DNA of 64,000 nucleotides from an uncultured Candidatus Actinomarina sp. (GCA_902519845.1 CABYLQ010000001.1:345808-409807), one strand, 5' to 3'; numbered from the stretch's first letter, positions 39,123-64,000 are shown. A program made the numbers and translations. Notes: generated from the letters alone by a model not told the origin.

Positions 39123-39195
39123 GGGGCTGTAGCTCAGTTGGCAGAGCACGTGCATGGCATGCACGGGGTCAGGGGTTCAAATCCCCTCAGCTCCA
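39123..39195 (+). tRNA. tRNA-Ala (anticodon GGC)
   Basis: Acceptor GGGGCTG/CAGCTCC with G3.U70 identity pair; anticodon stem CGTGC/GCACG with loop atGGCat; T-arm GGTTCAAATCC. Confidence 0.8.
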
Positions 39196-39204
39196 CAAAC
39201 AAAT

Positions 39205-40452
39205 ATGAATTTAAAATATATTAAAGAAATATTTATTCAAACCAAAGAATTAATTGGTTCTCAGTCAGTAATTGCATTAATAAGTTTAATTCAAGTTTCA
39301 TATGTAGTTAAAAAGTTAGGCGTTGAAAATTTTGGAGTAATCGCATTATTAATAGCTATTCCAAATTTGGTCTTTCGATCAATTCATGCAAACCATAGTG
39401 ATGTTATTTTATTAACACTCAAAAATGGAAAAAATATTGTGTCAGAATCACTATTTTTAAATTTTATCCTAGGACTTTTTTCATTCACTCTTTCTATGTT
39501 TGTATTTCTAAATCCAATAAATCCATTATTCTCTATCAACCAGTTAACTTCAATAGACGTATTGCCAGTAACTATAGTCTTATATTTATTCTCAAAAATT
39601 TTTCAAACTTTTTCTGAAACTAGTAAAGGTATATTAGTTTTTAAAAACAAAATGAAAAGTTTTTCATTTTTAGAATCATCCTCTATAGTTTTTAGATTTG
39701 TTCTAATAATTATTCTTTTAGGGATAAGTCCAACAATCCAAAGTTATCTTTTTGCTAATATTTTTTATTTTTTATACTCTGGTTTTTTTAGTTTATTTTT
39801 AATTAAAAAAGAATATGAATTGAATAAATTTTCATACGACGAGTTCAAACAATTTGTGGTATCAATTAAAAGATCATTCAATAGGGTTAGGATAAATCAA
39901 ATAATTTCATTAATACCTCAACATTTTGATATTATCTTTTTGTCAGTAGTGAGTGATTTTGGGACAGTTGGAATTTATCAATTTGCCAAAAGGTTGGTAG
40001 AACCTATAAATTATGTAATTTATAGTTTTACACCATGGATTCAAAACAAACTTAAAAATAATTCAAAAGATTTTAATATACAATCTTTTGTAAAAATGAT
40101 TTTAATACCAATTAGTTTTCTCTTATTCTCACTGTATGTATTTTTAGGTGAATTCATTATTTTACAAATTGGATCAGAAAGTTTTTTAAATTCATACAAC
40201 CCAATGATTATCTTATGTATTGGGTTTATAATTTATTTACTCACATTTTGGATAAGACAATCTCTTTTATTAAATAATCTTATACATTTCCATTCATATG
40301 GAAGACTAATTTATTGTTCAGCTTTTTTAGTGCTATCTTCTTTTCTAGCCAATAGTTTTAAAGAAATAGGGATTTCTGCATCGTTAACAATAGCTATATT
40401 TTTACAAAAAACTTTTGAATATATAATTTATAGGAAAAAATTAAAATCTTAA
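39205..40452 (+). CDS. Polysaccharide biosynthesis membrane protein, Wzx-like flippase (MOP superfamily, ~12 TM)
   Basis: ~415 aa, uniformly hydrophobic multi-helix pattern; context with Wzy-like and GT genes. Start ATG 39205 (the ORF-table start 39154 overlaps tRNA-Ala). Confidence 0.5.
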   Translation: MNLKYIKEIFIQTKELIGSQSVIALISLIQVSYVVKKLGVENFGVIALLIAIPNLVFRSIHANHSDVILLTLKNGKNIVSESLFLNFILGLFSFTLSMFVFLNPINPLFSINQLTSIDVLPVTIVLYLFSKIFQTFSETSKGILVFKNKMKSFSFLESSSIVFRFVLIIILLGISPTIQSYLFANIFYFLYSGFFSLFLIKKEYELNKFSYDEFKQFVVSIKRSFNRVRINQIISLIPQHFDIIFLSVVSDFGTVGIYQFAKRLVEPINYVIYSFTPWIQNKLKNNSKDFNIQSFVKMILIPISFLLFSLYVFLGEFIILQIGSESFLNSYNPMIILCIGFIIYLLTFWIRQSLLLNNLIHFHSYGRLIYCSAFLVLSSFLANSFKEIGISASLTIAIFLQKTFEYIIYRKKLKS

Positions 40453-40482
40453 TTTTTTTTAAAAAGCATTAAAGTATTAACT

Positions 40483-41847
40483 ATGAAGCTAAATAAAAAT
40501 AATCTTTACTTAGCTATAACCTTTTTTTCAATACTTCTAATTTTTATGGATTCATATAGTTTTTTTTCTGTTCCTGTTTCGTGGATTGGGTTAAGTTTTT
40601 TAATCCTTCCTTCAGTTACAAATTTTAAGGATAAAAATTTTAGGCAATACTTTTTTTATATTGTTGCTTTTCTTTTCGTTCTCAATCTAAATAGCTTTAT
40701 AAATATAATCTATAATAAATTTGATTATTCTTTTGAACCATACAGCTTATTGAGGTATTTAAATTTAATTTCATTTTTTTTAGTATATTTTTTTGTTTTG
40801 AATTTTTTTAAAAATAAAAATTATTCAAAATTTTTACAATTTGTTAAATTGTTTGTTTATACCTATTCCTTAATAATTATTTACATATATTTTGCCCAAA
40901 TTTTTGATTTGTATGAACCATTAAGAAATAGAGCTAATACAAATTTACTTGGTAATTCTGCACAATCAACTTTTTGGTTATCTCAACCTCATAGGGCTAT
41001 GGGAACATTCAGAGAACCAATTTTTTTAGTAGCTTTTTACTATCCAATGGTTCTACTTTATTTCATCAATACAAAAGAAAACAACTATATCTTAGCAATA
41101 ATTTCTGGTGCATCTCTTGGATTAACAAGAAGTAATTATCTAAAACTTTATGTTCTAATATTTATAATTATTTTGATATTTTATTACTTTAAAAATAAAT
41201 ATATAAACATACCAATCTATATATTATTTTCGTCTATTTTTATTTTTTCCTCAATCGGGCTTTTAGAATGCAACGTAAATCAATCAAGTAAAGAGTGCAG
41301 AGAATATCCAGAGACAGTTGAAAAAATTAATTCTTCAGGTGACTTCAGAATACTTTCCGGAACTAATAACGATGAACCTTTTTTAGATCGTGATAGATCA
41401 AATGTTGTAGTTTTTTTCTTAGACAATATTACTAATTTAAAACCGGTTGGGATTCAAAATGTAACCTCAAAATATCAAGAACATTTTGTATCAGAAATTT
41501 CTGAAGAAATGTACTTTATCAATAGAACTTTGCCAAAGTATCTTTTGACAAGATATAATTCTCAAAATTTTCGTACTGGTTATTATTCATTATTAGACTC
41601 CAAGCCAAATGTTCAAAATCTTTTTGTTTTTTATACGATTGGATTTGGATATATTTTCTTATTATTTTTGTTTTTATATTTTTTAAACCTTTTTTTTACA
41701 AAGAAAATTAATTTTAATTTATTTCTTTATTTGTATATATTATCTTTCGTTTTAATGAGCCCAATTGAAGAAGTAAATGCATATTATGGATTACTTATTG
41801 GATTTGCAAAAATATTATTAAGTAAGAAAGAAAATGAATATATATAA
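40483..41847 (+). CDS. O-antigen polymerase/ligase-like polytopic membrane protein (Wzy/WaaL-like)
   Basis: 454 aa, >10 TM segments with a central larger loop containing R/G-rich patches (LGLTRSNYL); genomic context. Confidence 0.45.
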   Translation: MKLNKNNLYLAITFFSILLIFMDSYSFFSVPVSWIGLSFLILPSVTNFKDKNFRQYFFYIVAFLFVLNLNSFINIIYNKFDYSFEPYSLLRYLNLISFFLVYFFVLNFFKNKNYSKFLQFVKLFVYTYSLIIIYIYFAQIFDLYEPLRNRANTNLLGNSAQSTFWLSQPHRAMGTFREPIFLVAFYYPMVLLYFINTKENNYILAIISGASLGLTRSNYLKLYVLIFIIILIFYYFKNKYINIPIYILFSSIFIFSSIGLLECNVNQSSKECREYPETVEKINSSGDFRILSGTNNDEPFLDRDRSNVVVFFLDNITNLKPVGIQNVTSKYQEHFVSEISEEMYFINRTLPKYLLTRYNSQNFRTGYYSLLDSKPNVQNLFVFYTIGFGYIFLLFLFLYFLNLFFTKKINFNLFLYLYILSFVLMSPIEEVNAYYGLLIGFAKILLSKKENEYI

Positions 41848-47066: not shown

Positions 47067-47744
47067 GTGACAAAATTAATAATAGCCGAAGCCTTGATTT
47101 CAGATGTAAATGAAATTAAATCAGAGATTGATAGTGATGAAAACATTATTTCAATATCTAAGAATGAATTTATTGAAAGTAATAATGCAGCACTTTTTAA
47201 AAATGAAAGCTATCAATTTATCGAAGATGAATTTCTTACATTTAACGAGTTAAAAAAATTAAATTACAACTTTGATGATAAATATATATTTCAAGTTAAA
47301 AAATCAAATTTAAAATCATTCTCTGAAGTTTCAAGTCTTATTCAAACATTTTTTCCAGACAAAAAGAAGAACTTAGATATTTATCCCTGGGATCTTGTAA
47401 ATATTATTTTTTCTAATCAAAAAAAAATTACTAATGAAATTTTGGATAAATTTTGTAGTCGTGAAATCGTTTTTAGACAGTTTCTAACCTATTTCAATAA
47501 AGAATTACAAAGGATTTCACTACTTGACAAATATGAGCAAGAGGAAGTATCAGAGCTTTTGTCCGAAAAAATTGATTATAAATATGAACTCGCTGAAAAA
47601 AGAAAAAGTAAGTTATCTTCAGATGACGTTAGTAATTCACTAGTAATGATATATAAAATAGAAAAACTGAATTCGGACACTAAATTTAGTGAAGAAAATG
47701 CAAAAAGATTTATCGTATCTATTAAAAATGTTTTACAATTTTGA
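47067..47744 (+). CDS. Hypothetical protein (225 aa, GTG start); by position possibly a reduced DNA polymerase III delta subunit (holA)-like gene
   Basis: Lies between leuS and rpsT, where Actinobacteria usually carry comEA-comEC-holA. No motif recognised; assignment by synteny only. Confidence 0.3.
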   Translation: MTKLIIAEALISDVNEIKSEIDSDENIISISKNEFIESNNAALFKNESYQFIEDEFLTFNELKKLNYNFDDKYIFQVKKSNLKSFSEVSSLIQTFFPDKKKNLDIYPWDLVNIIFSNQKKITNEILDKFCSREIVFRQFLTYFNKELQRISLLDKYEQEEVSELLSEKIDYKYELAEKRKSKLSSDDVSNSLVMIYKIEKLNSDTKFSEENAKRFIVSIKNVLQF

Positions 47745-47969
47745 AATTTTTGATTTATTTCTATCTCTAAAGTTTTTAGTGACTATTCCATTTGTATAGG
47801 CTCTGTCAAGATTTCTGATAACAGTATCTTTCATATCTTTTTCAACTGTACCTTCAGAATTTAAAATTGCTTTTATAGACGAACGAAGAGCTGTCTTTTT
47901 GTCCTTATTTCTAAGGTTTTTCTTTTCGTCTTGTCTTATTCTTTTTTTTTGAGAACTAATATTTGCCAT
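47733..47969 (-). CDS. rpsT: 30S ribosomal protein S20
   Basis: 78 aa; MANISSQKKRIRQ...NKDKKTALRS is an S20 signature; divergent from lepA. Confidence 0.85.
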   Translation of the reverse strand: MANISSQKKRIRQDEKKNLRNKDKKTALRSSIKAILNSEGTVEKDMKDTVIRNLDRAYTNGIVTKNFRDRNKSKISKL

Positions 47970-55003: not shown

Positions 55004-56279
55004 AGAAATATTTGATAAGGTTGTGAAAATTGCTCAAGCAAGAGGATTTGTGTTTAATGCCTCATCTATATACGGTGGGTTAAGAAGTTCTTATGATTAT
55101 GGACCACTTGGGGTACTTTTAAAAAATAATATTTCAAGCATGTGGTGGAGTAGTATTAACAGCCTTGATGTTGAAATCTATCCAATTGATACTGCAATTA
55201 TACAGTCAAGTGAAGTATGGAAGGCATCTGGCCATTTAGCTGAGTTCACCGATCCAATGGTTGATCATAAACCTACTGGTGAAAGATACAGGGCGGATCA
55301 GGTACCTACGGATTTAAAAAAAGAAGATTTAACGGAGCCACGTCAATTTAACCTTATGTTTGAAACTAGTATTGGTCCAGTAGAAAATGAAAACTCAGCT
55401 GTTTATTTAAGACCTGAAACTGCACAAGGTATATTTGTTAACTTTGAGAATGTTTTACGTACCATGAGAGCAAAAATTCCATTTGGAATTGGAAATATTG
55501 GAAAGTCTTTTAGAAACGAAATCACACCCGGACAATTTATTTTTAGGACTAGGGAATTTGAACAAATGGAGATTGAATTCTTTTGTGATGAAAGTGAAGA
55601 GGATAAATGGTTTGATTACTGGGTTGAAAATAGACTAAATTGGTATAAAAATCTTGGTATTCCAGAGAAAAAATTAAGAATTAGAAATCATGAAAAATCT
55701 GAGCTTGCTCATTATGCGAAAAAAACATCAGATATTGAATTTGAGTATCCATGGGGATGGGGTGAACTTGAAGGAATTGCTAATAGAGGTAATTTTGATT
55801 TAAATGCACATCAAGAAAGCAGTGGTAAGGATTTAAAATACTTTGATCCGGTTACAGAAAGTAAATTTACTCCATCTGTCATAGAGCCAGCAGGTGGTCT
55901 AACTAGAACCCTTTTTGCTGTTTTATTATCTTTATATGAAGAAGAAGAAATAGAAAATGAAACAAGAACGCTATTTAAATTTAATTTTGATCTTGCACCT
56001 ATTCAAATCGGAATACTTCCGTTAAGCAAAAAAGAAGAATTAATCACAGTTTGCAATCAGATAAACTCTTCTCTTCGATCAAACTTTAGAACAGAAATTG
56101 ATATTACCCAATCTATTGGAAAAAGATACAGAAGACAGGATGAAATAGGTACTCCTTATTGTGTAACGGTAGATTTTGATACTTTAGAGGATAATTCTGT
56201 GACAGTGAGAAGCAGAGATATAATGGAACAAGAAAGAATCAAAATCGAAGACTTAAGAGACTATTTCAGTAATTTTTAA
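54990..56279 (+). CDS. glyQS: Glycine--tRNA ligase (class II, alpha2 dimeric form)
   Basis: N-terminal GFVF.SS.IYGGL, class II motifs, C-terminal anticodon-binding domain. Start ATG 54990, overlapping uppS by 14 nt. Confidence 0.85.
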   Translation: MEMPEEIFDKVVKIAQARGFVFNASSIYGGLRSSYDYGPLGVLLKNNISSMWWSSINSLDVEIYPIDTAIIQSSEVWKASGHLAEFTDPMVDHKPTGERYRADQVPTDLKKEDLTEPRQFNLMFETSIGPVENENSAVYLRPETAQGIFVNFENVLRTMRAKIPFGIGNIGKSFRNEITPGQFIFRTREFEQMEIEFFCDESEEDKWFDYWVENRLNWYKNLGIPEKKLRIRNHEKSELAHYAKKTSDIEFEYPWGWGELEGIANRGNFDLNAHQESSGKDLKYFDPVTESKFTPSVIEPAGGLTRTLFAVLLSLYEEEEIENETRTLFKFNFDLAPIQIGILPLSKKEELITVCNQINSSLRSNFRTEIDITQSIGKRYRRQDEIGTPYCVTVDFDTLEDNSVTVRSRDIMEQERIKIEDLRDYFSNF

Positions 56280-57910
56280 TGGGAATTTCTAAACAGTCAA
56301 TTGAAGATTTAAAAAATAAATCAAAGATTAGCGATTTTATTTTAAGTTCCACAACTGGAAAACTTAGAGGAAATAAAGGGATGGCACTCTGTCCTTTTCA
56401 TGGTGAAAAGACAGCAAGTATGAGCTTTACAGATGAAGAAAATCTTTTTCACTGCTTTGGCTGTAGAGAAGGCGGGGATATATTTAAATATATTCAATTA
56501 ATTAATAATGTTGAATTTCAAGAATCAGTTGAAATTGCTGCAGACAAATATAGTTTCAACCTTACATATACAGATTCAAAATTTGAAAGCGATCAAAAAA
56601 ATTTAGTTAGTTACATGAATAAGTTAACTGATTATTTTGTAAAAAATATGAATGAGGGTAAAAGTCAAGATTCAATAAATTATCTTAAATCAAGAAACCT
56701 TGAAGGGATGGATATTAAAGAATTCAAAATAGGTTTTGCCGAAAAAAATGAAAGTGATATTTTTAAATTCATAAATACGCTAGGCATATCAAAAAATGAA
56801 TTAAGAAATCTTGGGTTGCTCAGCGATAAAGGAAATCTTCTTTTTAAAAATAGAATTATATTTCCCATTACAAACTTAAGAAATGACACAATAGGCTTTG
56901 GTGGAAGAGCAATTGAAGACTTTGGTCCAAAGTATATTAACTCTGCTGAATCGGGAGTTTATAAAAAGAACAGGGCTTTGTATTTTACAGACAATTTTCT
57001 ATCAGTTGTAAAAAAGAAAAAATTTGTGATTCTTGTTGAAGGGTATTTTGATGTAATTGCATTTAATAAATTGGGATATGCAAATGTTGCTTCGCCCTCA
57101 GGTACAGCTCTAACAGTTCAACAATTAAATCTTCTTTCAAGATATACGAAAGATATTTATATATGTTTTGATAATGATACAGCTGGTGATATGGCTACAA
57201 AAAGAATTCTTGAAATTAAAAATAATCAACCTTCAGACCTCAACTTTTTTAAATTGAATTTGCCAGATAATTACAAAGACATATCTGAATTTTTTGAAGA
57301 CGGAGAGAAAAATATTAAAAATATATTTGATCAAAAAGAAGAGTTGGTAGAGTTTTGTATCAATATGATAATTGACACAAATGATACAAAGAAAACTTTT
57401 CAAGAATTTAAAAACATTACAAAGTTTCTGAGTCCATTAGAAAAAGATTTAGCGATAAGTTTTTTGAGTGAAAATATAGGAATAACAAAAGAAGTTATTT
57501 TAAATGAATTAAATTACCAATCTAACAATGAATCGGATGAGGTACAACAGTTTGAAAAAAGTGACATTAATCACATCAATACATTCCAAGAAATATTAAT
57601 TGCTGATTTAATTAAAAGTAAATTTGATTATGATGATGAGATTGAATATCTTTTAAATATTAATGAAAATTTCAAAAAATTAATATTAGACATAAAATCT
57701 AATAAAAATCCTGAAGAAAGCGAAAAGTATCAAAATATTTCTTATACAGATGAGCAACTTAGAGAAGCTGTATCGAGATTGTATATTTATTTCGCAGATA
57801 ATAAAATTGACACATTGATTAAGGTAATGGACGAATCAAATGACTTGTCAATTCTCGAAGATTTAGAACATTTGAAAAAGAAAATCGAATTTTATCAGAA
57901 TACTCTTTAA
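56279..57910 (+). CDS. dnaG: DNA primase
   Basis: Zinc-ribbon CPFHGEKTASMSF...CFGC; TOPRIM domain (EGYFDVIA... DNDTAGD). 543 aa. Confidence 0.85.
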   Translation: MGISKQSIEDLKNKSKISDFILSSTTGKLRGNKGMALCPFHGEKTASMSFTDEENLFHCFGCREGGDIFKYIQLINNVEFQESVEIAADKYSFNLTYTDSKFESDQKNLVSYMNKLTDYFVKNMNEGKSQDSINYLKSRNLEGMDIKEFKIGFAEKNESDIFKFINTLGISKNELRNLGLLSDKGNLLFKNRIIFPITNLRNDTIGFGGRAIEDFGPKYINSAESGVYKKNRALYFTDNFLSVVKKKKFVILVEGYFDVIAFNKLGYANVASPSGTALTVQQLNLLSRYTKDIYICFDNDTAGDMATKRILEIKNNQPSDLNFFKLNLPDNYKDISEFFEDGEKNIKNIFDQKEELVEFCINMIIDTNDTKKTFQEFKNITKFLSPLEKDLAISFLSENIGITKEVILNELNYQSNNESDEVQQFEKSDINHINTFQEILIADLIKSKFDYDDEIEYLLNINENFKKLILDIKSNKNPEESEKYQNISYTDEQLREAVSRLYIYFADNKIDTLIKVMDESNDLSILEDLEHLKKKIEFYQNTL

Positions 57911-57933
57911 TACATACTATTATTAATTTGCTA

Positions 57934-58006
57934 TCCGAGGTAGCTCAATTGGCAGAGCAGCGGACTGTTAATCCGTTGGTTGTGGGTTCAAGTCCCACCC
58001 TCGGAG
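57934..58006 (+). tRNA. tRNA-Asn (anticodon GTT)
   Basis: Acceptor TCCGAGG/CCTCGGA; anticodon loop ctGTTaa; T-arm GGTTCAAGTCC; followed by a T6 run. Confidence 0.8.
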
Positions 58007-58054
58007 CTTTTTTAATTAGAAAAAAAAAGTATAATTACATGTGAATGGAGGATA

Positions 58055-58345
58055 ATGGATAATTTAGTAGAACTAATCCAAACAAATGCAGAAGGCAAAG
58101 ATCTAAGTGTTCTTGGAGGAACTGTAAAGCTTGTTGTTGATGATCAAATTGTCTTTGTTAAACCAGATGGAGAAATCTCTGGAAGTGACGAAGAGGCAGA
58201 TTGTACAATGACAATTGATTCAGAAACAATGCAATCAATAATGAACGGTGAAACCAGTGGGCAAGCTGCATTTATGACTGGAAAGCTTAAAGTTTCTGGT
58301 GATATGGGAATTGCTCTTAAAACTCAATCATTTTTAGGCAAGTAA
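58055..58345 (+). CDS. SCP-2 sterol-transfer-domain small protein
   Basis: 96 aa; C-terminal AFMTGKLKVSGDMGIALK matches the SCP2 family signature. Confidence 0.65.
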   Translation: MDNLVELIQTNAEGKDLSVLGGTVKLVVDDQIVFVKPDGEISGSDEEADCTMTIDSETMQSIMNGETSGQAAFMTGKLKVSGDMGIALKTQSFLGK

Positions 58346-58353
58346 TTAAATTA

Positions 58354-58427
58354 GGGCCTGTAGCTCAGTTGGTTAGAGCAACGGACTCATAATCCGTCGG
58401 TCGCAGGTTCGAGTCCTGCCGGGCCCA
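58354..58427 (+). tRNA. tRNA with CAT anticodon (elongator tRNA-Met or lysidine-modified tRNA-Ile2)
   Basis: Acceptor GGGCCTG/CGGGCCC; anticodon loop ctCATaa; T-arm GGTTCGAGTCC. G1-C72 pair argues against initiator. Confidence 0.75.
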
Positions 58428-58429
58428 CA

Positions 58430-60415
58430 GTGAGTGAAAACAAAAAATTGAGTAAATTAAATTCTCGCACCATAGGTTCAGTATTTGCTATTTCTCTTTT
58501 AATTCCACAAAACATCGGTATTAATCTTCTCGGAATCAATTTTGAAGATATACCATTAATAGTCATTTTTCTTGTATTGCTGATTCTAAAAATACAGAAT
58601 TTTACTTTACAAAAATTCGACATCATATTTTTATCTTTTTTAGGATTCTTTGTAATTTACACAACTTTTTCGGTCAGCGAATTTAAATTATTTAATCAAA
58701 CTAACTTAAGATTTTATTTTTATTTTATGCTCTCTTATTTGTGTATAGATTTACTTAAAAAAAATGAAAATCGAATTATCGACCTTTTTGAACCTTTAGG
58801 TATTGTGATGTTGGCTAATTTCATAGTTATAATTTTTCAAATTCAACTACCTGGAACAATTGATGGATGGGTGTTGAACAATACTGATAGTATAAATCCA
58901 TTTGCATCAGGCAGACTAGGTGGTTTTCAAGGAGGAGGCCCTAATGTAATTGGTATAATATGCGCAATTTATTGTTTACTATGTGTTCACAAATTAATTA
59001 TTTCTGGCAATATAAGAACTTTTTTATTTGAAGATAGACTCAACGCCTCTTTGCTTTTTATATCTCTGATTAATCTAATTTTTACATTTTCTAGAGGATC
59101 ATATCTTGCATTATTTATTGGCTTACTAACTTTAATTATGTTTTCTGAAAAAATTGATAAGGCTATTAAAACTTATTTTGTGACAAGTCTTAGTCTTATC
59201 GTAGTCTTTTCAATTTACACATTTCCGGGAATATTTCTTAAGGAAACCAATAGATCTTTTCTTAACTCATTAGGAGCGAAAAATACAGAAATATTTGTCG
59301 GTGCAGGTGGTGGAAATTATATTAAAAGTGTTTATGAAGAATATTTAGTTACTTTGGATGAAGATATACTTCTTGATGAATTCAACATTATCTATTCAGA
59401 AGAAGAAAGGTCAAGACTTTTAGATCCTACAGAGAATGAAATTTCAATGCCAGTTGAAGGCTTTCTTAAATTAAGGTTTGATTATCAAGACAATCTTTTA
59501 CCAAGATCAATTATTTCTTTTTATTATTCAAATGATGGTTCAAGTTGGAATCAATTAGGTTCTGATCATACAAGTGGAGTAGTAATTGATTTAATTGAAA
59601 ATGATTCTTTTTTTGAGGTTGGTGGATGGGGAGATGGTCAATCTCCTGGGGATCAATACCTTAGTGGATTTGTTAAAAAGACAATTATTCAGACAGATGA
59701 TTATAAAAGAGAATATAACTTTACAAAAGAAAACAGAGATATTGACTATTTATTACTCACTCCATTAAATAAAAATCAGTATGAAAGACAAGTCGAATAT
59801 AATGATAATTCTATAAGACTTGAAAGACCAAGAAGTTACTGGTTAGCGTTGCCAAATGAAGTTAATTTGTCTGGAAAAGATTTTGAGGTAACTATTGAAT
59901 TAAATCTTCAATCAGTTCCAAAAGGTCATGAAACATTGTTAAGTCAAAGTTCAATCTTAAAACTTAATGATAAATTTAATGATCAGTCTTGGAAGTGGTC
60001 AATTATAGATGGTAGGATGTACTTCTTTTGGATTGAAAATGTAACATCAGGATATTCAAATTTTGTAGGAGGACAAAGTTTGAGATCTGGAAAATTAATT
60101 TCAAACAATGGAGTATTTGATTCTGTAATTTCAGATTTTTCATTATCTCAATATGATGAGATTACTACTGCGCATAATGGCTTTTTAACAATGTCTGTTG
60201 AATATGGTATATTCCCAATATCGATCATTATATTTTTGATTGCTTATTCACTAATTAAGAACTTTAAAAAATCTTTTGGATTTGAAATTTCTTTGTTATT
60301 AATGTTCGTTGCACAAAACCTTACAAATGACCTCGTATATGCACCAGATGTTGGAATTTACTTTTGGCTAATTCCGATTTATTTCATTTCCAATTCTTTA
60401 AGAGTCAAGAACTGA
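58430..60415 (+). CDS. O-antigen-ligase-like (Wzy_C) polytopic membrane protein with a ~330-aa extracytoplasmic insertion (661 aa)
   Basis: N-terminal ~9 TM helices with the ligase-type loop FTFSRGSYLALFIGLL. Residues ~280-600 are hydrophilic (GGWGDGQSPGDQYLSGF...). Two further C-terminal TM helices. GTG start immediately after the tRNA. Confidence 0.5.
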   Translation: MSENKKLSKLNSRTIGSVFAISLLIPQNIGINLLGINFEDIPLIVIFLVLLILKIQNFTLQKFDIIFLSFLGFFVIYTTFSVSEFKLFNQTNLRFYFYFMLSYLCIDLLKKNENRIIDLFEPLGIVMLANFIVIIFQIQLPGTIDGWVLNNTDSINPFASGRLGGFQGGGPNVIGIICAIYCLLCVHKLIISGNIRTFLFEDRLNASLLFISLINLIFTFSRGSYLALFIGLLTLIMFSEKIDKAIKTYFVTSLSLIVVFSIYTFPGIFLKETNRSFLNSLGAKNTEIFVGAGGGNYIKSVYEEYLVTLDEDILLDEFNIIYSEEERSRLLDPTENEISMPVEGFLKLRFDYQDNLLPRSIISFYYSNDGSSWNQLGSDHTSGVVIDLIENDSFFEVGGWGDGQSPGDQYLSGFVKKTIIQTDDYKREYNFTKENRDIDYLLLTPLNKNQYERQVEYNDNSIRLERPRSYWLALPNEVNLSGKDFEVTIELNLQSVPKGHETLLSQSSILKLNDKFNDQSWKWSIIDGRMYFFWIENVTSGYSNFVGGQSLRSGKLISNNGVFDSVISDFSLSQYDEITTAHNGFLTMSVEYGIFPISIIIFLIAYSLIKNFKKSFGFEISLLLMFVAQNLTNDLVYAPDVGIYFWLIPIYFISNSLRVKN

Positions 60416-61519
60416 ATTTTTTTTCAAAAAATTATGAATTGTATCATTTAGAACTAACACTTGCCTTCCATCATTTAATGTTAAGTAATCGACAGGTGTT
60501 GTAAATTTTTGGACATTACTTAAATCAATATTTCTAAAAGTCCATAGAATTTCAACTGCTTTATTTATTGATAAATTTTCATCGATAATGAATGAGTTTT
60601 CCAAAGCTTTTATAAAAGAATTGAGTTCATTCACTGACTCAAATTCTTTTAACTCATTGATTAATTGCATTACAACATATTGTTGCCTGTCAATTCTTGT
60701 GAGATCACTAACTCCAAGCATAGGCTTCCACTCAGATATGTCATTTCCTTTATTATCAATAAGTTTTTCACCTACTAATTCTTCAGTTGATCTTGAAACA
60801 ACCCAATTCAAAGTAGTTAGTCCATTAACTGTCTGACATCCTTCTTGTAATTCAAAGCTAAATCCCTCACGTTGAGTCTTATCAACACAAATTTCGATAC
60901 CATCTACTGAGTCAATAATTTCCTCAAAGCCCTCAAAGTCAAAGCTTGCAAAATTTGTAACTCGTATTCCTGAAATGCTATATATGGCTGCAGCTAAATT
61001 TTCTGCTCTGCCCCCACACTCATTTTTACTATACGCTGCATTAATCCTCTCTAATTTTCCTGTACAATTGTTTTTTATTAACAGATCACGTGGAAAAGAA
61101 AGTAAAGTAATTTCTTTTGATGATTTCTCAACAAGCCCAAGAATAATTACATCTGCTCGCTTCCCTGTTATTTCACCCCTTGTTAAGGCAATCTCTGCAG
61201 ATCTTTCATCTGAGCCAATCAATAAATACACGTCAAAATTAGTTATTTCCTTTTCAAACTCATTTAATAGGAGAACTTTATCAATATCTGATATTTCTTC
61301 CTCTGTCAAAACCAATTCATCCATGGATGAAATAGATTCTTGAGTATTTTGTTCACTATTTTCTTTAATTGTCGTAGTGGTAACACCCTCTATAATGTCA
61401 TCAATGACTTCCTGATCAAATTCTTCAGTCTCTAGATTTGGGATAAAACTAAAAATTACTATTGTTGCAATAACAAGTATTCCTAGAAATAAATACGTAT
61501 ATTTATTAAAAATTTTCAT
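60398..61519 (-). CDS. LytR-CpsA-Psr (LCP) family cell-wall glycopolymer phosphotransferase
   Basis: N-terminal TM anchor; LCP motifs (YLLIGSDER...RADVIILG...SFPRDL...INAAY...GG...NFASFDFEGF). Confidence 0.8.
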   Translation of the reverse strand: MKIFNKYTYLFLGILVIATIVIFSFIPNLETEEFDQEVIDDIIEGVTTTTIKENSEQNTQESISSMDELVLTEEEISDIDKVLLLNEFEKEITNFDVYLLIGSDERSAEIALTRGEITGKRADVIILGLVEKSSKEITLLSFPRDLLIKNNCTGKLERINAAYSKNECGGRAENLAAAIYSISGIRVTNFASFDFEGFEEIIDSVDGIEICVDKTQREGFSFELQEGCQTVNGLTTLNWVVSRSTEELVGEKLIDNKGNDISEWKPMLGVSDLTRIDRQQYVVMQLINELKEFESVNELNSFIKALENSFIIDENLSINKAVEILWTFRNIDLSNVQKFTTPVDYLTLNDGRQVLVLNDTIHNFLKKNSVLDS

Positions 61520-61545
61520 ACAATACCAAATTACATAATATAACT

Positions 61546-62277
61546 ATGTATTCTTTAGTTGTGGAAAATATCAAATGTATTATAGCCGCAGGTGGCCTTG
61601 GAACAAGATTGCAAGAATTTAGAGGAAATAAATCTACAAAAATACTTTTAGACGTAAATGGAACCCCCATGATTAATCAACAAGTTTCTCAACTTGTTAA
61701 CTGGGGAATGAGAAAATTTGTAATTATAACTAACCCGGAATACTTCAATATGATACAAGAAGTTACTCTTGGTGAATTTAAAGATTTAGAAATAGAATTT
61801 ACTATTCAAGAAGAACCAAAAGGAATATCACATGCTTTATATCAAGCAAGAGATTATGTAGATGAAAATGAGAAAATATTTTTTGTTTTAGGCGATAATT
61901 TTTTTGAAAATAGTCCATTTAATAATTTTGATTTCAAAAATTTTCATCAAGGTGCATGTATATTTACAACTGAAGTAAACAACCCTGAGGAATTTGGAGT
62001 AGCTGAGATGGATATTGACGGAAAAGTTCTTTCAATTGAGGAAAAGCCTACCAATCCTAAATCCAATGATGCAGTTGTGGGTTTATACATGTTTGATAAT
62101 TCTGTTTTTAATAAGATTGATACTTTAGAACCATCTGCCAGGGGAGAATATGAAATTACAGACTTATGCAATATTTTTGTTTCAGAAAATAAATGTATGA
62201 ACTTAAATATAAATGGCTGGTGGATCGATGCAGGAACTCCTGAAAGAATTATTGAACTTGAAGAAAAGTTAAGTTAA
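61546..62277 (+). CDS. Sugar-phosphate nucleotidyltransferase (RmlA/LicC-like, 243 aa)
   Basis: N-terminal IIAAGGLGTRL (GxGTRL) nucleotide-binding motif; short single-domain form. Confidence 0.7.
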   Translation: MYSLVVENIKCIIAAGGLGTRLQEFRGNKSTKILLDVNGTPMINQQVSQLVNWGMRKFVIITNPEYFNMIQEVTLGEFKDLEIEFTIQEEPKGISHALYQARDYVDENEKIFFVLGDNFFENSPFNNFDFKNFHQGACIFTTEVNNPEEFGVAEMDIDGKVLSIEEKPTNPKSNDAVVGLYMFDNSVFNKIDTLEPSARGEYEITDLCNIFVSENKCMNLNINGWWIDAGTPERIIELEEKLS

Positions 62278-63309
62278 GACCTTCAATCTTATTGAAATTA
62301 AGTAAGTTAGAAAATAAACAGTAAACAAAACTCCAATAATTAAAAGTGATAATTGGGTTGAAGTAAAAATTGAGAGATAAATTAATAAAAAAGTTCCAAG
62401 ACTATAAATTAGAAATATTGAAAGAACTGTTTTTTCAGAAAATCCTTTTGCAAGTAATCGATGTGAGATATGGTCTGTTCCACCGATAGTAGGTGATTTT
62501 CCTATACTAATTCTGTAGGTAACAACAACAAGAAAATCTATTAAGGGAACTGAAAATACTAACAATATTGGGCTGAGTGTAGTTGAATAAACAGTAACAT
62601 CTTCTGGGACCCAGCTATATATAATACTCATAAATCCTAGACAAAAACCTATAAATAAACTACCAGAATCTCCAAAGTATAATTTTGCAGGTGGGAAATT
62701 GAAAAATAAAAAACCTCCAATTGTACAAAGTAGAAGAATAGAAATATCTGTTAACTTATACTGGTTTAAATAATTTGTTAAGACTGCAATCTGTATACAT
62801 ATAGCTGAAGAGACAACTACGGCAAGCCCATCCATATTATCTATAAAATTTATTGCATTCATTATCAACATAATCCAAATCGTTGAAACTATGTAATTTA
62901 AAGAATTATTGAATTCTAAGCCAATAAGTGATTCAAAATTTATAAAAATATTTAAGTTATACAAAGGTATGTAGACAATGATTATTTGAAAGAAGAATTT
63001 AATATACCATTTAAAATTATACAAATCATCTAGCAAGCCAATAATTGAAATTATTACTGCGAAAAAACCTACGTATAAGAAATTACTTTCAGCCTGTCCT
63101 AGAAGTCTTGTAGATATCAAAAATGCGATAGAACAAGCAATACCACCAAATGGTGGGACATATCTTGAAGATAATCTTTCTTCATTTTTTCTTATACTCG
63201 GTACAAAGTTTTTTGTTCTTTGTAGAGTTATCCAATTAAAGAATAGGGATAATAAAATTGTTGCTATCGCTGCACTTGTTATTGATACTTGAAAATTAGA
63301 TAAATTCAC
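62269..63309 (-). CDS. wecA: Polyprenyl-phosphate N-acetylhexosamine-1-phosphate transferase (GT4 MraY/WecA family)
   Basis: DDxxN/D (LLDDLYNF) and NAINFIDNMDGLA motifs of the MraY/WecA superfamily; ~10 TM. Confidence 0.8.
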   Translation of the reverse strand: MNLSNFQVSITSAAIATILLSLFFNWITLQRTKNFVPSIRKNEERLSSRYVPPFGGIACSIAFLISTRLLGQAESNFLYVGFFAVIISIIGLLDDLYNFKWYIKFFFQIIIVYIPLYNLNIFINFESLIGLEFNNSLNYIVSTIWIMLIMNAINFIDNMDGLAVVVSSAICIQIAVLTNYLNQYKLTDISILLLCTIGGFLFFNFPPAKLYFGDSGSLFIGFCLGFMSIIYSWVPEDVTVYSTTLSPILLVFSVPLIDFLVVVTYRISIGKSPTIGGTDHISHRLLAKGFSEKTVLSIFLIYSLGTFLLIYLSIFTSTQLSLLIIGVLFTVYFLTYLISIRLKVLT

Positions 63310-64000
63310 TTTTGTAGCTCTCGATCTCTTTTCTTAAATATCGATAAATTTTATTATATGCAGCTGCAATTTTGACAGATGTATAGTTTTTATCAATTAA
63401 TTCTCTATTGTATTTGGCATCTTCTCCAAAAAGAATATTTTGTGTACTATCTAAAAAAGCATCATGATTAATTATTTCATCAAGATTTCTTCTAAATTCT
63501 TCAATATTGTTTTCATCTATAAAGAAAGAATTTCTAAATTTTGAGCTGAGCTCTGATGTGCCTGGAATATTATTAGATAAACATATTAATCCTACATACA
63601 AAGATTCTAAAAGTATTCTTGAAGATCCCTCATACTTTGACATAACAATATTTATATCGAAATTTTGAAGCTCTTTCTTTATATCAATATGTCCTAAATA
63701 ATTTATAAAGTTACTATTTTTTATTTCATTTAGCTGAGATTCACTTAGTGAATCTGGATTTCCATTGTCTAAATCACCAGCTAGATAGAACTCAAAATCT
63801 GAATCTTTCATCAAATTAGCTAGCTCAAGATATTCAAATACACCTTTGTCATTAATTAACCTTGTAGCCATAATTACTTTTAAATTTGAGTTTCGATATT
63901 CTTTTTTTAACTCAAGTTCCTTCACGGTTATCCCAGAAGTTGGAATTATAAAAGATTCACCATTATATTTTGAGTAATTATTAAATGTTTTTTGATCTTC
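63296..64000 (-). CDS. Glycosyltransferase family 1, C-terminal part (gene begins beyond the window end)
   Basis: The C-terminal GT-B half (KVIMATRLINDKGV...ESLYVGLICLSNNIPG) starts abruptly, which indicates the N-terminal domain lies past 64000. Overlaps the wecA start by 14 nt (operon). Confidence 0.6.
   Translation of the reverse strand, partial: EDQKTFNNYSKYNGESFIIPTSGITVKELELKKEYRNSNLKVIMATRLINDKGVFEYLELANLMKDSDFEFYLAGDLDNGNPDSLSESQLNEIKNSNFINYLGHIDIKKELQNFDINIVMSKYEGSSRILLESLYVGLICLSNNIPGTSELSSKFRNSFFIDENNIEEFRRNLDEIINHDAFLDSTQNILFGEDAKYNRELIDKNYTSVKIAAAYNKIYRYLRKEIESYKSEFI

Follow-up and report, generated by a model that had tools for sequence, protein, structure and literature searches.

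The right end of a 64,000-nucleotide stretch of DNA from an uncultured Candidatus Actinomarina sp. (GCA_902519845.1, CABYLQ010000001.1:345808-409807; the whole stretch is referred to below as the window) carries, downstream of the primase gene dnaG, two tRNA genes interleaved with genes for a predicted cell-wall glycopolymer pathway. This locus is core and syntenic in gene content, with about 25 genes over about 30 kb in an order that is fixed across Actinomarinales. Three adjacent genes at its left end, encoding a WaaL-fold membrane protein termed here WzyL, a LytR-CpsA-Psr (LCP) phosphotransferase and a short RmlA-like nucleotidyltransferase (NTP), occur in versions that are very old alleles under purifying selection. 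The explanation that we favor as a whole, with a probability of roughly 0.7, is that the window holds the left end of a fixed-order glycopolymer cluster whose hypervariable WzyL-LCP-RmlA alleles are exchanged by recombination at tRNA blocks. Actinomarina are among the most abundant and the smallest free-living marine bacteria, and to our knowledge have no cultured representative.

A first-pass annotation of this DNA had proposed a polymer pathway comprising initiation, sugar activation, extension and attachment by LCP, located in a tRNA-flanked variable island. The pathway reading is reasonable and consistent with all domain, PDB-sequence and fold results. The island reading stands only in part. 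As regards gene content it does not hold, with identical gene order, fixed tRNAs, ordinary GC and no tRNA-fragment repeats, whereas the tRNA with anticodon CAT, hereafter tRNA(CAT), does edge a tract of about 6 kb of divergent alleles shuffled among species. Conservation and synteny of the genes across the clade had been named in the annotation as the finding that would speak against an island, and this is what we observed for gene content; since genes and tRNAs are fixed in all relatives, the variable-island reading fails in this respect by its own standard.

Fixed gene order and divergent alleles

Relatives were collected by a scan with DnaG as query and one genome per GTDB species, which gave 25 loci, all from Candidatus Actinomarina or Actinomarinales, with DnaG identities of 53-96%. 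By tblastn, the order and orientation uppS-glyS-dnaG-SCP2-WzyL-LCP-NTP-WecA-like-GT1 (GT1, Glycos_transf_1 glycosyltransferase) is the same in every locus that is long enough; among species-level relatives, all 17-20 that offer sufficient sequence keep synteny and both tRNAs, and the tRNAs lie at the same places in 18 of the 18 loci scanned. Even a metagenome contig whose DnaG is only 47-51% identical to all others carries tRNA-Asn, SCP2 and tRNA(CAT), and its gene order is unchanged. In each of 17 loci, the genes that come next beyond the right end of the window encode a full GT1 protein (385-393 aa), a UDP-glucose 6-dehydrogenase (TuaD-like, 234.7 bits), a UXS/ArnA-like short-chain dehydrogenase/reductase (SDR) and a second glycosyltransferase (GT). 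A further 20 kb or so of conserved order, seen in metagenome contigs and in five single-cell-genome contigs, continues with a third GT1, two SDR enzymes, a second Wzy_C protein (47.6 bits, above the Pfam threshold), another SDR, an FdtA/RmlC-like isomerase (148 aa), an RmlD-like reductase, a UDP-GlcNAc 2-epimerase (WecB), a GT, a Bac_transf initiating transferase, an AsnB-like amidotransferase, a Wzx/Polysacc_synt_3-like protein and a heparinase II/III-like protein. The rightward extension and the comparison of strains that the first-pass annotation had recommended therefore returned synteny over some 25 genes, and the same genes everywhere with hypervariable sequence. In one 1.02-Mb contig from a metagenome-assembled genome (MAG), matches to the conserved cluster are broken up and the ORFs there are short (L023:10000-21639), which looks like the result of frameshift errors rather than of gene loss.

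Cassette identities were determined in single-cell genomes only, by comparison of L008 with L011, L012, L007 and L014. Over the 12 kb upstream these genomes are 93-99% identical to L008 at the nucleotide level; identity then falls abruptly at tRNA(CAT), to 58-64% in WzyL, 68-76% in LCP and 62-72% in the nucleotidyltransferase gene, rises to 83-89% in the WecA-like and GT1 genes, and stands at 92-98% again from the UDP-glucose dehydrogenase gene onward, with recovery to baseline about 6 kb to the right of tRNA(CAT). The left edge of the cassette is thus sharp at the invariant tRNA, and the right edge is gradual through the WecA-like and GT1 genes. Codon analysis of the pair L008-L011 gave the same profile: synonymous divergence (dS) is 0.09-0.13 in uppS, glyS and dnaG, 1.77 in WzyL, 1.36 in LCP, 1.54 in NTP, 0.62 in the WecA-like gene and 0.44 in GT1, followed by 0.21, 0.18 and 0.08 farther right, and the ratio of nonsynonymous to synonymous divergence (dN/dS) within the valley is 0.13-0.18. 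Saturated dS beside a flank dS of about 0.1, together with low dN/dS, points to old alleles and not to fast evolution in place.

Allele divergence peaks in WzyL, for which at least five allele classes, with 50-72% amino acid identity between classes, were found among 12 close genomes. The distribution of the classes does not follow that of the flanks. Between L008 and L012, flank identity is 98% and WzyL identity 60%, and L013, with 88% identity to L007 and L011 in the flank, shows 92-96% in the cassette. As in a replacement island, the locus is present in all strains at one site, in deep versions whose distribution conflicts with the flank phylogeny. A second valley was observed in the comparison of L012 (19000-21500) with L008, where the UXS-like SDR gene has a dS of 1.66 and the next GT an amino acid identity of 46%, the genes between the two valleys being 84-92% identical in amino acids; the cluster is therefore a patchwork of several allele tracts. 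In the housekeeping flank, positions 47279-47878 of the window are nearer to L005 (96%) than to L001 and L002 (91-93%), whereas the 10 kb around them show the opposite order of similarity, and this segment may be a small recombination tract.

The two tRNAs lie in blocks that are identical in all lineages. One, of 95 nt (57913-58007), surrounds tRNA-Asn, and the other, of 83 nt (58354-58436), consists of tRNA(CAT) and the next 8 nt. Between them, the gene for the SCP2-fold protein exists in two deep allele classes (52-60% amino acid identity among L001-L014), which assort independently both of the flanks and of the WzyL cassette. In the pair L008 and L011, the SCP2 proteins are 100% identical, yet the dS of the gene, at 0.54, is some fivefold that of the flanks.

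Two alternatives bear directly on these observations. The divergence might have arisen in place, through fast or relaxed evolution of surface-exposed proteins with no exchange between lineages; this would accord with the fact that WzyL, LCP and many polysaccharide enzymes are often quick to evolve, and with the spread of the divergence along the entire WzyL protein. We regard it as very improbable and already contradicted, because a dS of 1.4-1.8 stands against 0.1 in the flank with such low dN/dS, the allele classes are common to several species and differ in near-identical backgrounds, and the left edge falls abruptly at a tRNA. An island in the classical sense, inserted at tRNA genes and flexible in its gene content from strain to strain, could be expected from the two tRNAs at the left edge, from the published tRNA-associated glycotype island of variable content in this order (PMC7771536), and from the many short-read contigs that break off at these tRNAs or are short in the region of the cluster. 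However, gene order is constant over about 30 kb in all relatives, the tRNAs are fixed everywhere and GC, at 27-32%, is that of the rest of the window. The 3' half of each tRNA occurs once in the window, with no partial tRNA direct repeats, a general repeat search of the window returned nothing meaningful, and no integrase was found among its ORFs. We consider an island of this kind improbable for the cluster, and for the 6 kb within the window it is already contradicted.

Mosaic ancestry of the window

The window itself combines sequences related to different genomes. From 46.3 to 57.9 kb, sliding identity to L001, L002 and L003 is 95-99% at the nucleotide level (95-98% for dnaG); the SCP2 gene is 96.9% identical to that of L007 (99% in amino acids); and from 58.43 kb to its end the window is 92-97% identical to L006, L008, L009 and L010, whose dnaG genes are only 72-76% identical to its own. 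According to the supplement to PMC7771536, L003 and L005 belong to genomospecies G1.3 and L010 to G1.1. Alignment at the base level showed that the window follows L001 up to the end of dnaG, L007 from the first base past tRNA-Asn to tRNA(CAT), and L010 from 9 nt past tRNA(CAT), so that both switches of ancestry fall inside the invariant blocks. Blocks of this kind are ideally suited to crossover by homologous recombination. The window thus joins three ancestries at two tRNAs, and may represent either real recombination or an assembly chimera.

Several points weigh against the explanation that we favor. The polymer and each enzymatic step leading to it are assigned from family membership, and the WecA-like, RmlA-like and Wzy_C assignments do not reach the curated equivalog or gathering thresholds. 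Neighbor-joining trees and sliding identities, which are no formal recombination test, are the basis for the incongruence of cassette and flanks, and selection by phages is proposed on the strength of the general literature. The cluster probably belongs to the published island of these organisms, a link that is made through generic KEGG names and not through coordinates. Finally, both switches of ancestry in the window lie in identical blocks where a short-read (de Bruijn) assembler could also switch, and the combination of dnaG, SCP2 and WzyL seen in the window is absent from the 25 metagenome loci and from the contigs that encode the five nearest matches to WzyL.

These last points lead to the suggestion that an assembler passed through the identical tRNAs of co-occurring G1.3-like, L007-like and G1.1-like populations and so produced the three-ancestry mosaic of the window, an explanation that would leave the allele cassette in single-cell genomes unaffected and whose chances we place somewhat below even. 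It is favored by the position of both switches in blocks of 83-95 nt that do not differ between any of the lineages, by the absence of the same combination from all of about 35 other contigs examined, by metagenome contigs that often begin exactly at these tRNAs, and by the collapse of co-occurring species in assembly graphs that is stated in bioRxiv 10.64898/2026.04.03.716425. Every close module of type A, moreover, is joined to a dnaG of G1.1 type. Against it stand equivalent mosaics in single-cell genomes, namely L007, whose SCP2 class differs from that of its sisters in a combination that recurs in the independent contig L031, and L013, whose cassette is shared across an 88% flank; the module allele of the window, which is sister to all sampled type-A alleles and not nested among them; and contig L060, which joins a dnaG tail that is not of G1.1 type to SCP2 and module of G1.1 type, although on 65 nt only. 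Our main conclusion is independent of whether the mosaic of the window is an artifact.

Short-read metagenome contigs that start at or inside tRNA-Asn or tRNA(CAT) include L061:1-75, L032:3-77, L053:1-50 and L040:14-87. Both tRNAs are accordingly branch points in the assembly graphs of natural Actinomarina populations, and any recombination deduced here from MAGs has to be backed by individual reads. In the k127 metagenome contig L060 (positions 1-570), the dnaG tail is nearest to those of distant clades, matching L015 at 60 of 65 nt and G1.1 at 54 of 65, and SCP2 and the module past tRNA-Asn are 97.5-99.3% of G1.1 type; it is possibly a second inter-lineage mosaic, on 65 nt of evidence.

WzyL and the putative polymer pathway

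Fold and motifs place WzyL in the WaaL/Wzy superfamily. The protein matches Pfam Wzy_C at 26.2 bits against a cut-off of 31.7, over residues 208-268 and profile positions 2-62 only, and a precomputed PF04932 match exists for many other WzyL alleles. It has a polytopic membrane fold of WaaL type, with transmembrane (TM) helices between residues 12 and 270 approximately (18-270 by hydropathy), two to three C-terminal helices at about 572-660, and a large external loop between the late helices. By hydropathy this loop is a 324-residue acidic segment between the TM blocks, and the extracytoplasmic insert of about 300 residues holds a predicted ConA-like/GH16-like beta-sandwich (about 342-567). An alignment that includes distant forms revealed the conserved motifs SGRLGGxQGGGPNV, FTFSRGS, GxGGGNY, TT[SA]HNG[FY]L..VEY and QNxTND..Y.PD. 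In this alignment, which reaches down to 31% identity, R222 (FTFSRGS) is near-invariant and H582 (TT[SA]HNG) invariant, the two residues flanking the insert, and both motifs are also present in the downstream Wzy_C paralogue.

WzyL has few relatives. In a set of 1.84 billion representatives, searched exhaustively, there were only about 126 matches, nearly all of them fragments from the same lineage. Full-length relatives are limited to one protein that is 47% identical and to a few of 800-830 aa, with identities of 31-39%; among 5.8 billion proteins, the nearest WzyL has 94% identity. Searches of the PDB at the sequence level matched none of its chains (profile searches gave noise only), Foldseek against the PDB returned nothing significant, and the beta-insert searched alone against Pfam gave no match. 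A structure model built from a shallow alignment had a pLDDT of 54.6 and was not used. The 800-830-aa form is found at this very locus in a distant lineage (L059:4451-6880; P0124, P0126-P0130) and has an additional insert of about 150 residues, containing cysteines, before the beta-sandwich.

The pathway reading is strengthened by the right-hand genes for UDP-glucose dehydrogenase, a UXS-like SDR, GTs, a second Wzy_C protein, RmlC- and RmlD-like enzymes, WecB, Bac_transf, AsnB and a Wzx-like flippase. Drawing on TagO/WecA-LCP pathways and on Wzx/Wzy systems, we propose that a WecA/TagO-family transferase would begin the chain on polyprenyl phosphate, while the RmlA-like protein and downstream enzymes would provide activated sugars. 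GT4-type transferases with GT1 domains would lengthen the chain from UDP and dTDP sugars, including glucuronate-derived and 6-deoxy sugars, and the lipid-linked glycan would be flipped across the membrane. There, one or more WaaL-fold proteins, WzyL among them with its built-in ConA-like domain, would polymerize or transfer the lipid-linked glycan outside the membrane, and LCP would couple it to peptidoglycan.

A different assignment of roles, to which we attach limited probability, is that WzyL is not the repeat-unit polymerase but a ligase or O-oligosaccharyltransferase that moves the finished lipid-linked glycan to another acceptor, such as a lipid anchor or surface proteins, the ConA-like domain binding acceptor or glycan and the smaller downstream Wzy_C protein acting as polymerase. 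Against it, WaaL, Wzy and O-oligosaccharyltransferases are not separable by fold or by these motifs, WzyL adjoins, overlaps and co-diverges with LCP, the expected Gram-positive ligase, and there is no known acceptor.

On the evolutionary side, our favored explanation would have homologous recombination cross over at the invariant tRNA blocks (83-95 nt) on the left and in the conserved right-hand genes on the other side, so that whole sets of orthologous alleles would be traded between species, and different WzyL-LCP-RmlA sets would yield different polymer structures. Old alleles might then be kept by frequency-dependent selection on the surface glycan, most probably from phages, and the mosaic of the window (G1.3-like backbone, L007-like SCP2, G1.1-like module) would be one such recombination product. 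WzyL, as a lineage-specific WaaL-fold protein with a lectin-like insert, is most likely the specificity determinant. A fuller proposal, which we advance only tentatively, is that WzyL, LCP and the RmlA-like protein form a co-adapted glycotype specificity cassette, in which the lectin-domain WaaL-fold enzyme sets polymer structure, phages drive balancing selection, transfer is anchored at tRNAs without gain or loss of genes, and tRNA processing yields a near-leaderless WzyL mRNA.

The closest published counterpart is the fGI1/hypervariable region of Actinomarinales, an order-wide glycotype island with tRNAs as recombination hot spots (PMC7771536; bioRxiv 10.64898/2026.04.03.716425). It shares with the cluster the organisms, genes for envelope polysaccharides, tRNA hot spots and phage evasion as proposed driver, and its KEGG list includes rfbA, rfbC, UGDH, UXS1, wecB and asnB, all represented in the cluster. 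On the basis of these shared names the cluster is probably a conserved-order arm of fGI1. As published, fGI1 varies in content, is lower in GC and holds singleton genes, and repeats of tRNA fragments mark the insertion of cassettes; in contrast, the cluster has constant content over about 30 kb, normal GC, no tRNA-fragment repeats, and only allelic replacement of orthologues. The searchable text of both papers and their supplements does not name tRNA-Asn, tRNA-Met, dnaG or primase, LCP or LytR, or an O-antigen ligase or Wzy-like protein. Relative to this text, what is new here is some 30 kb of invariant content that varies by allelic replacement, a discrete dS-saturated cassette of three genes with its edge exactly at a tRNA, and a lineage-restricted WaaL-fold protein with a ConA-like insert. 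Replacement islands that are exchanged through homologous recombination offer a second parallel. Mostly synonymous substitutions peak at the edges of loci for surface glycans, more sharply at one edge than at the other as in our cluster, and these peaks were read by the authors as recombination between clonal frames under phage selection (PMC4033161). There the replaced core holds different genes, whereas here neither the genes nor their order change, and the tract therefore behaves as a multi-gene balanced polymorphism.

Gram-positive pathways built on TagO/WecA and LCP include those for the wall teichoic and teichuronic acids of Bacillus and for the Rha-GlcNAc-P linker of mycobacterial arabinogalactan, with Lcp1. 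The cluster resembles them in its PNPT initiator, RmlA(-BCD), TuaD-like dehydrogenase, GT4-type transferases (with weak similarity to TuaC) and LCP ligase. It differs from them in that no equivalog threshold is reached for TagO/WecA, RmlA, TuaC/D or TagT/U/V, and in having a Wzx/Wzy-type route with two Wzy_C proteins in place of TagF-type polymerases, a TagGH transporter and a GT2 WbbL. Within the Wzy_C/SEDS shape-fold group, WzyL differs from the O-antigen ligase WaaL (PDB 7tpj) by an external loop that is longer by about 300 residues and contains the beta-sandwich. The cps locus of Streptococcus pneumoniae lies at a fixed site, begins with the LCP gene cpsA and is exchanged through conserved flanks, giving many serotypes. 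It shares with the cluster the fixed site, the LCP gene and homologous exchange between lineages, but its central gene content differs by serotype and its flanks are protein-coding (dexB/aliA) and not tRNAs.

Part of the published glycotype island is, in this reading of the alleles, a fixed gene set with very old alternative versions and not a gene-content island, and such a set can provide surface diversity in a streamlined genome of 1.1 Mb without extra genes. WzyL allele classes and tRNA-anchored breakpoints can serve as markers to count glycotypes in metagenomes.

Window features and transcript layout

The features at the right end of the window are compiled in the table. The first-pass list of genes and tRNAs, with their positions and mixed strands, was borne out by ARAGORN, ORF and Pfam analyses, and the overlaps it had put at 9-18 nt measure 18, 9 and 14 nt. 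The GT1 frame is open to base 64000, and the gene is cut by the end of the window.

Table. Features at the right end of the window (positions counted from its first nucleotide) and the evidence for each.
Feature	Position	Strand	Evidence and remarks
dnaG primase	56279..57910	+	Pfam, tblastn, blastn typing; conserved left flank
tRNA-Asn(GTT)	57934..58007	+	ARAGORN; same sequence in all loci
SCP2-fold protein, 96 aa	58055..58345	+	Pfam, 60.4 bits
tRNA, anticodon CAT	58354..58428	+	ARAGORN (Met call); same sequence in all loci
WzyL, 661 aa, Wzy_C-like membrane protein	58430..60415	+	Sub-threshold Pfam Wzy_C
LCP (LytR-CpsA-Psr) glycopolymer phosphotransferase	60398..61519	-	Pfam, NCBIfam, PDB sequences
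Short RmlA-like sugar-1-phosphate nucleotidyltransferase, 243 aa	61546..62277	+	Pfam, NCBIfam, PDB sequences
MraY/WecA/TagO-family polyprenyl-phosphate sugar-1-phosphate transferase, 346 aa	62269..63309	-	Pfam, NCBIfam, PDB sequences
Glycos_transf_1 (CAZy GT4-type) glycosyltransferase, C-terminal ~234 codons	63296..64000	-	Pfam; orthologues 385-393 aa

The LCP protein scores well above the cut-offs of its family models (PF03816, 87.8 bits against 24.6; TIGR00350, 76.5 against 62.3) and matches solved LCP structures, including TagU and TagV, in the PDB sequence search; among NCBIfam equivalog models, none for TagU, LytR or CpsA was reached at its cut-off. As read from its sequence, it consists of a hydrophobic N-terminal segment at about residues 8-27 (YTYLFLGILVIATIVIFSFI), an acidic linker and the LCP domain (121-246). 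The RmlA-like protein matches PF00483 (NTP_transferase) at 153.4 bits and has RmlA enzymes as its best PDB matches (3hl3, E = 5e-39), but remains below the equivalogs TIGR01207 (162.8 against a cut-off of 360.65) and TIGR01208 (191.9 against 320.25), and is shorter than the full-length RmlA architecture of about 290 aa. The WecA-like protein scores 108.7 bits with PF00953 (Glycos_transf_4; cut-off 27) and contains the motifs LLDDLYN, NAINFIDNMDGL and FGDSGS. Its top NCBIfam match is TIGR02380 (WecA) at 84.6 bits against a cut-off of 326, short of equivalog level, the MraY models scoring 50-55 bits; the only solved structures that it matches are MraY chains (E = 3e-7), and no exact copy was found in protein records.

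In 12 sequences (the window and 11 loci), WzyL starts 2 nt past the 3' end of tRNA(CAT), with GTG or, in L014, ATG, and in the distant L059 it starts 4 nt past it; there is thus no room for a Shine-Dalgarno site. The SCP2 gene is preceded by a conserved TATAAT and by a GGAGG Shine-Dalgarno site of its own, so that SCP2, tRNA(CAT) and WzyL look like one transcript, from which processing of the tRNA would free a near-leaderless WzyL mRNA. Leaderless mRNAs are common in Actinobacteria, which fits this layout. Between the divergent starts of LCP and the RmlA-like gene lies a 26-nt spacer (61520-61545) without a Shine-Dalgarno site, and CATAAT is found 7 nt ahead of the RmlA-like ATG, which suggests leaderless transcription. 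Promoter and terminator scans gave counts no higher than chance.

The tRNA with anticodon CAT is not an initiator, since its position 1:72 is paired. It has C4:G69 and C5:G68, pairs that are identity elements of tRNA-Ile2 for lysidine synthetase, and to judge from these it may be tRNA-Ile(CAU) rather than elongator tRNA-Met. The gene for the SCP2-fold protein, a lipid-binding fold, lies close to uppS and to the polyprenyl-dependent pathway. GC is about 30% throughout the window, and its lowest-GC kilobase is found away from the cluster, at 40001-41000 (21.6%, with GC and AT skew both negative), just downstream of a tRNA-Ala (39123-39196).

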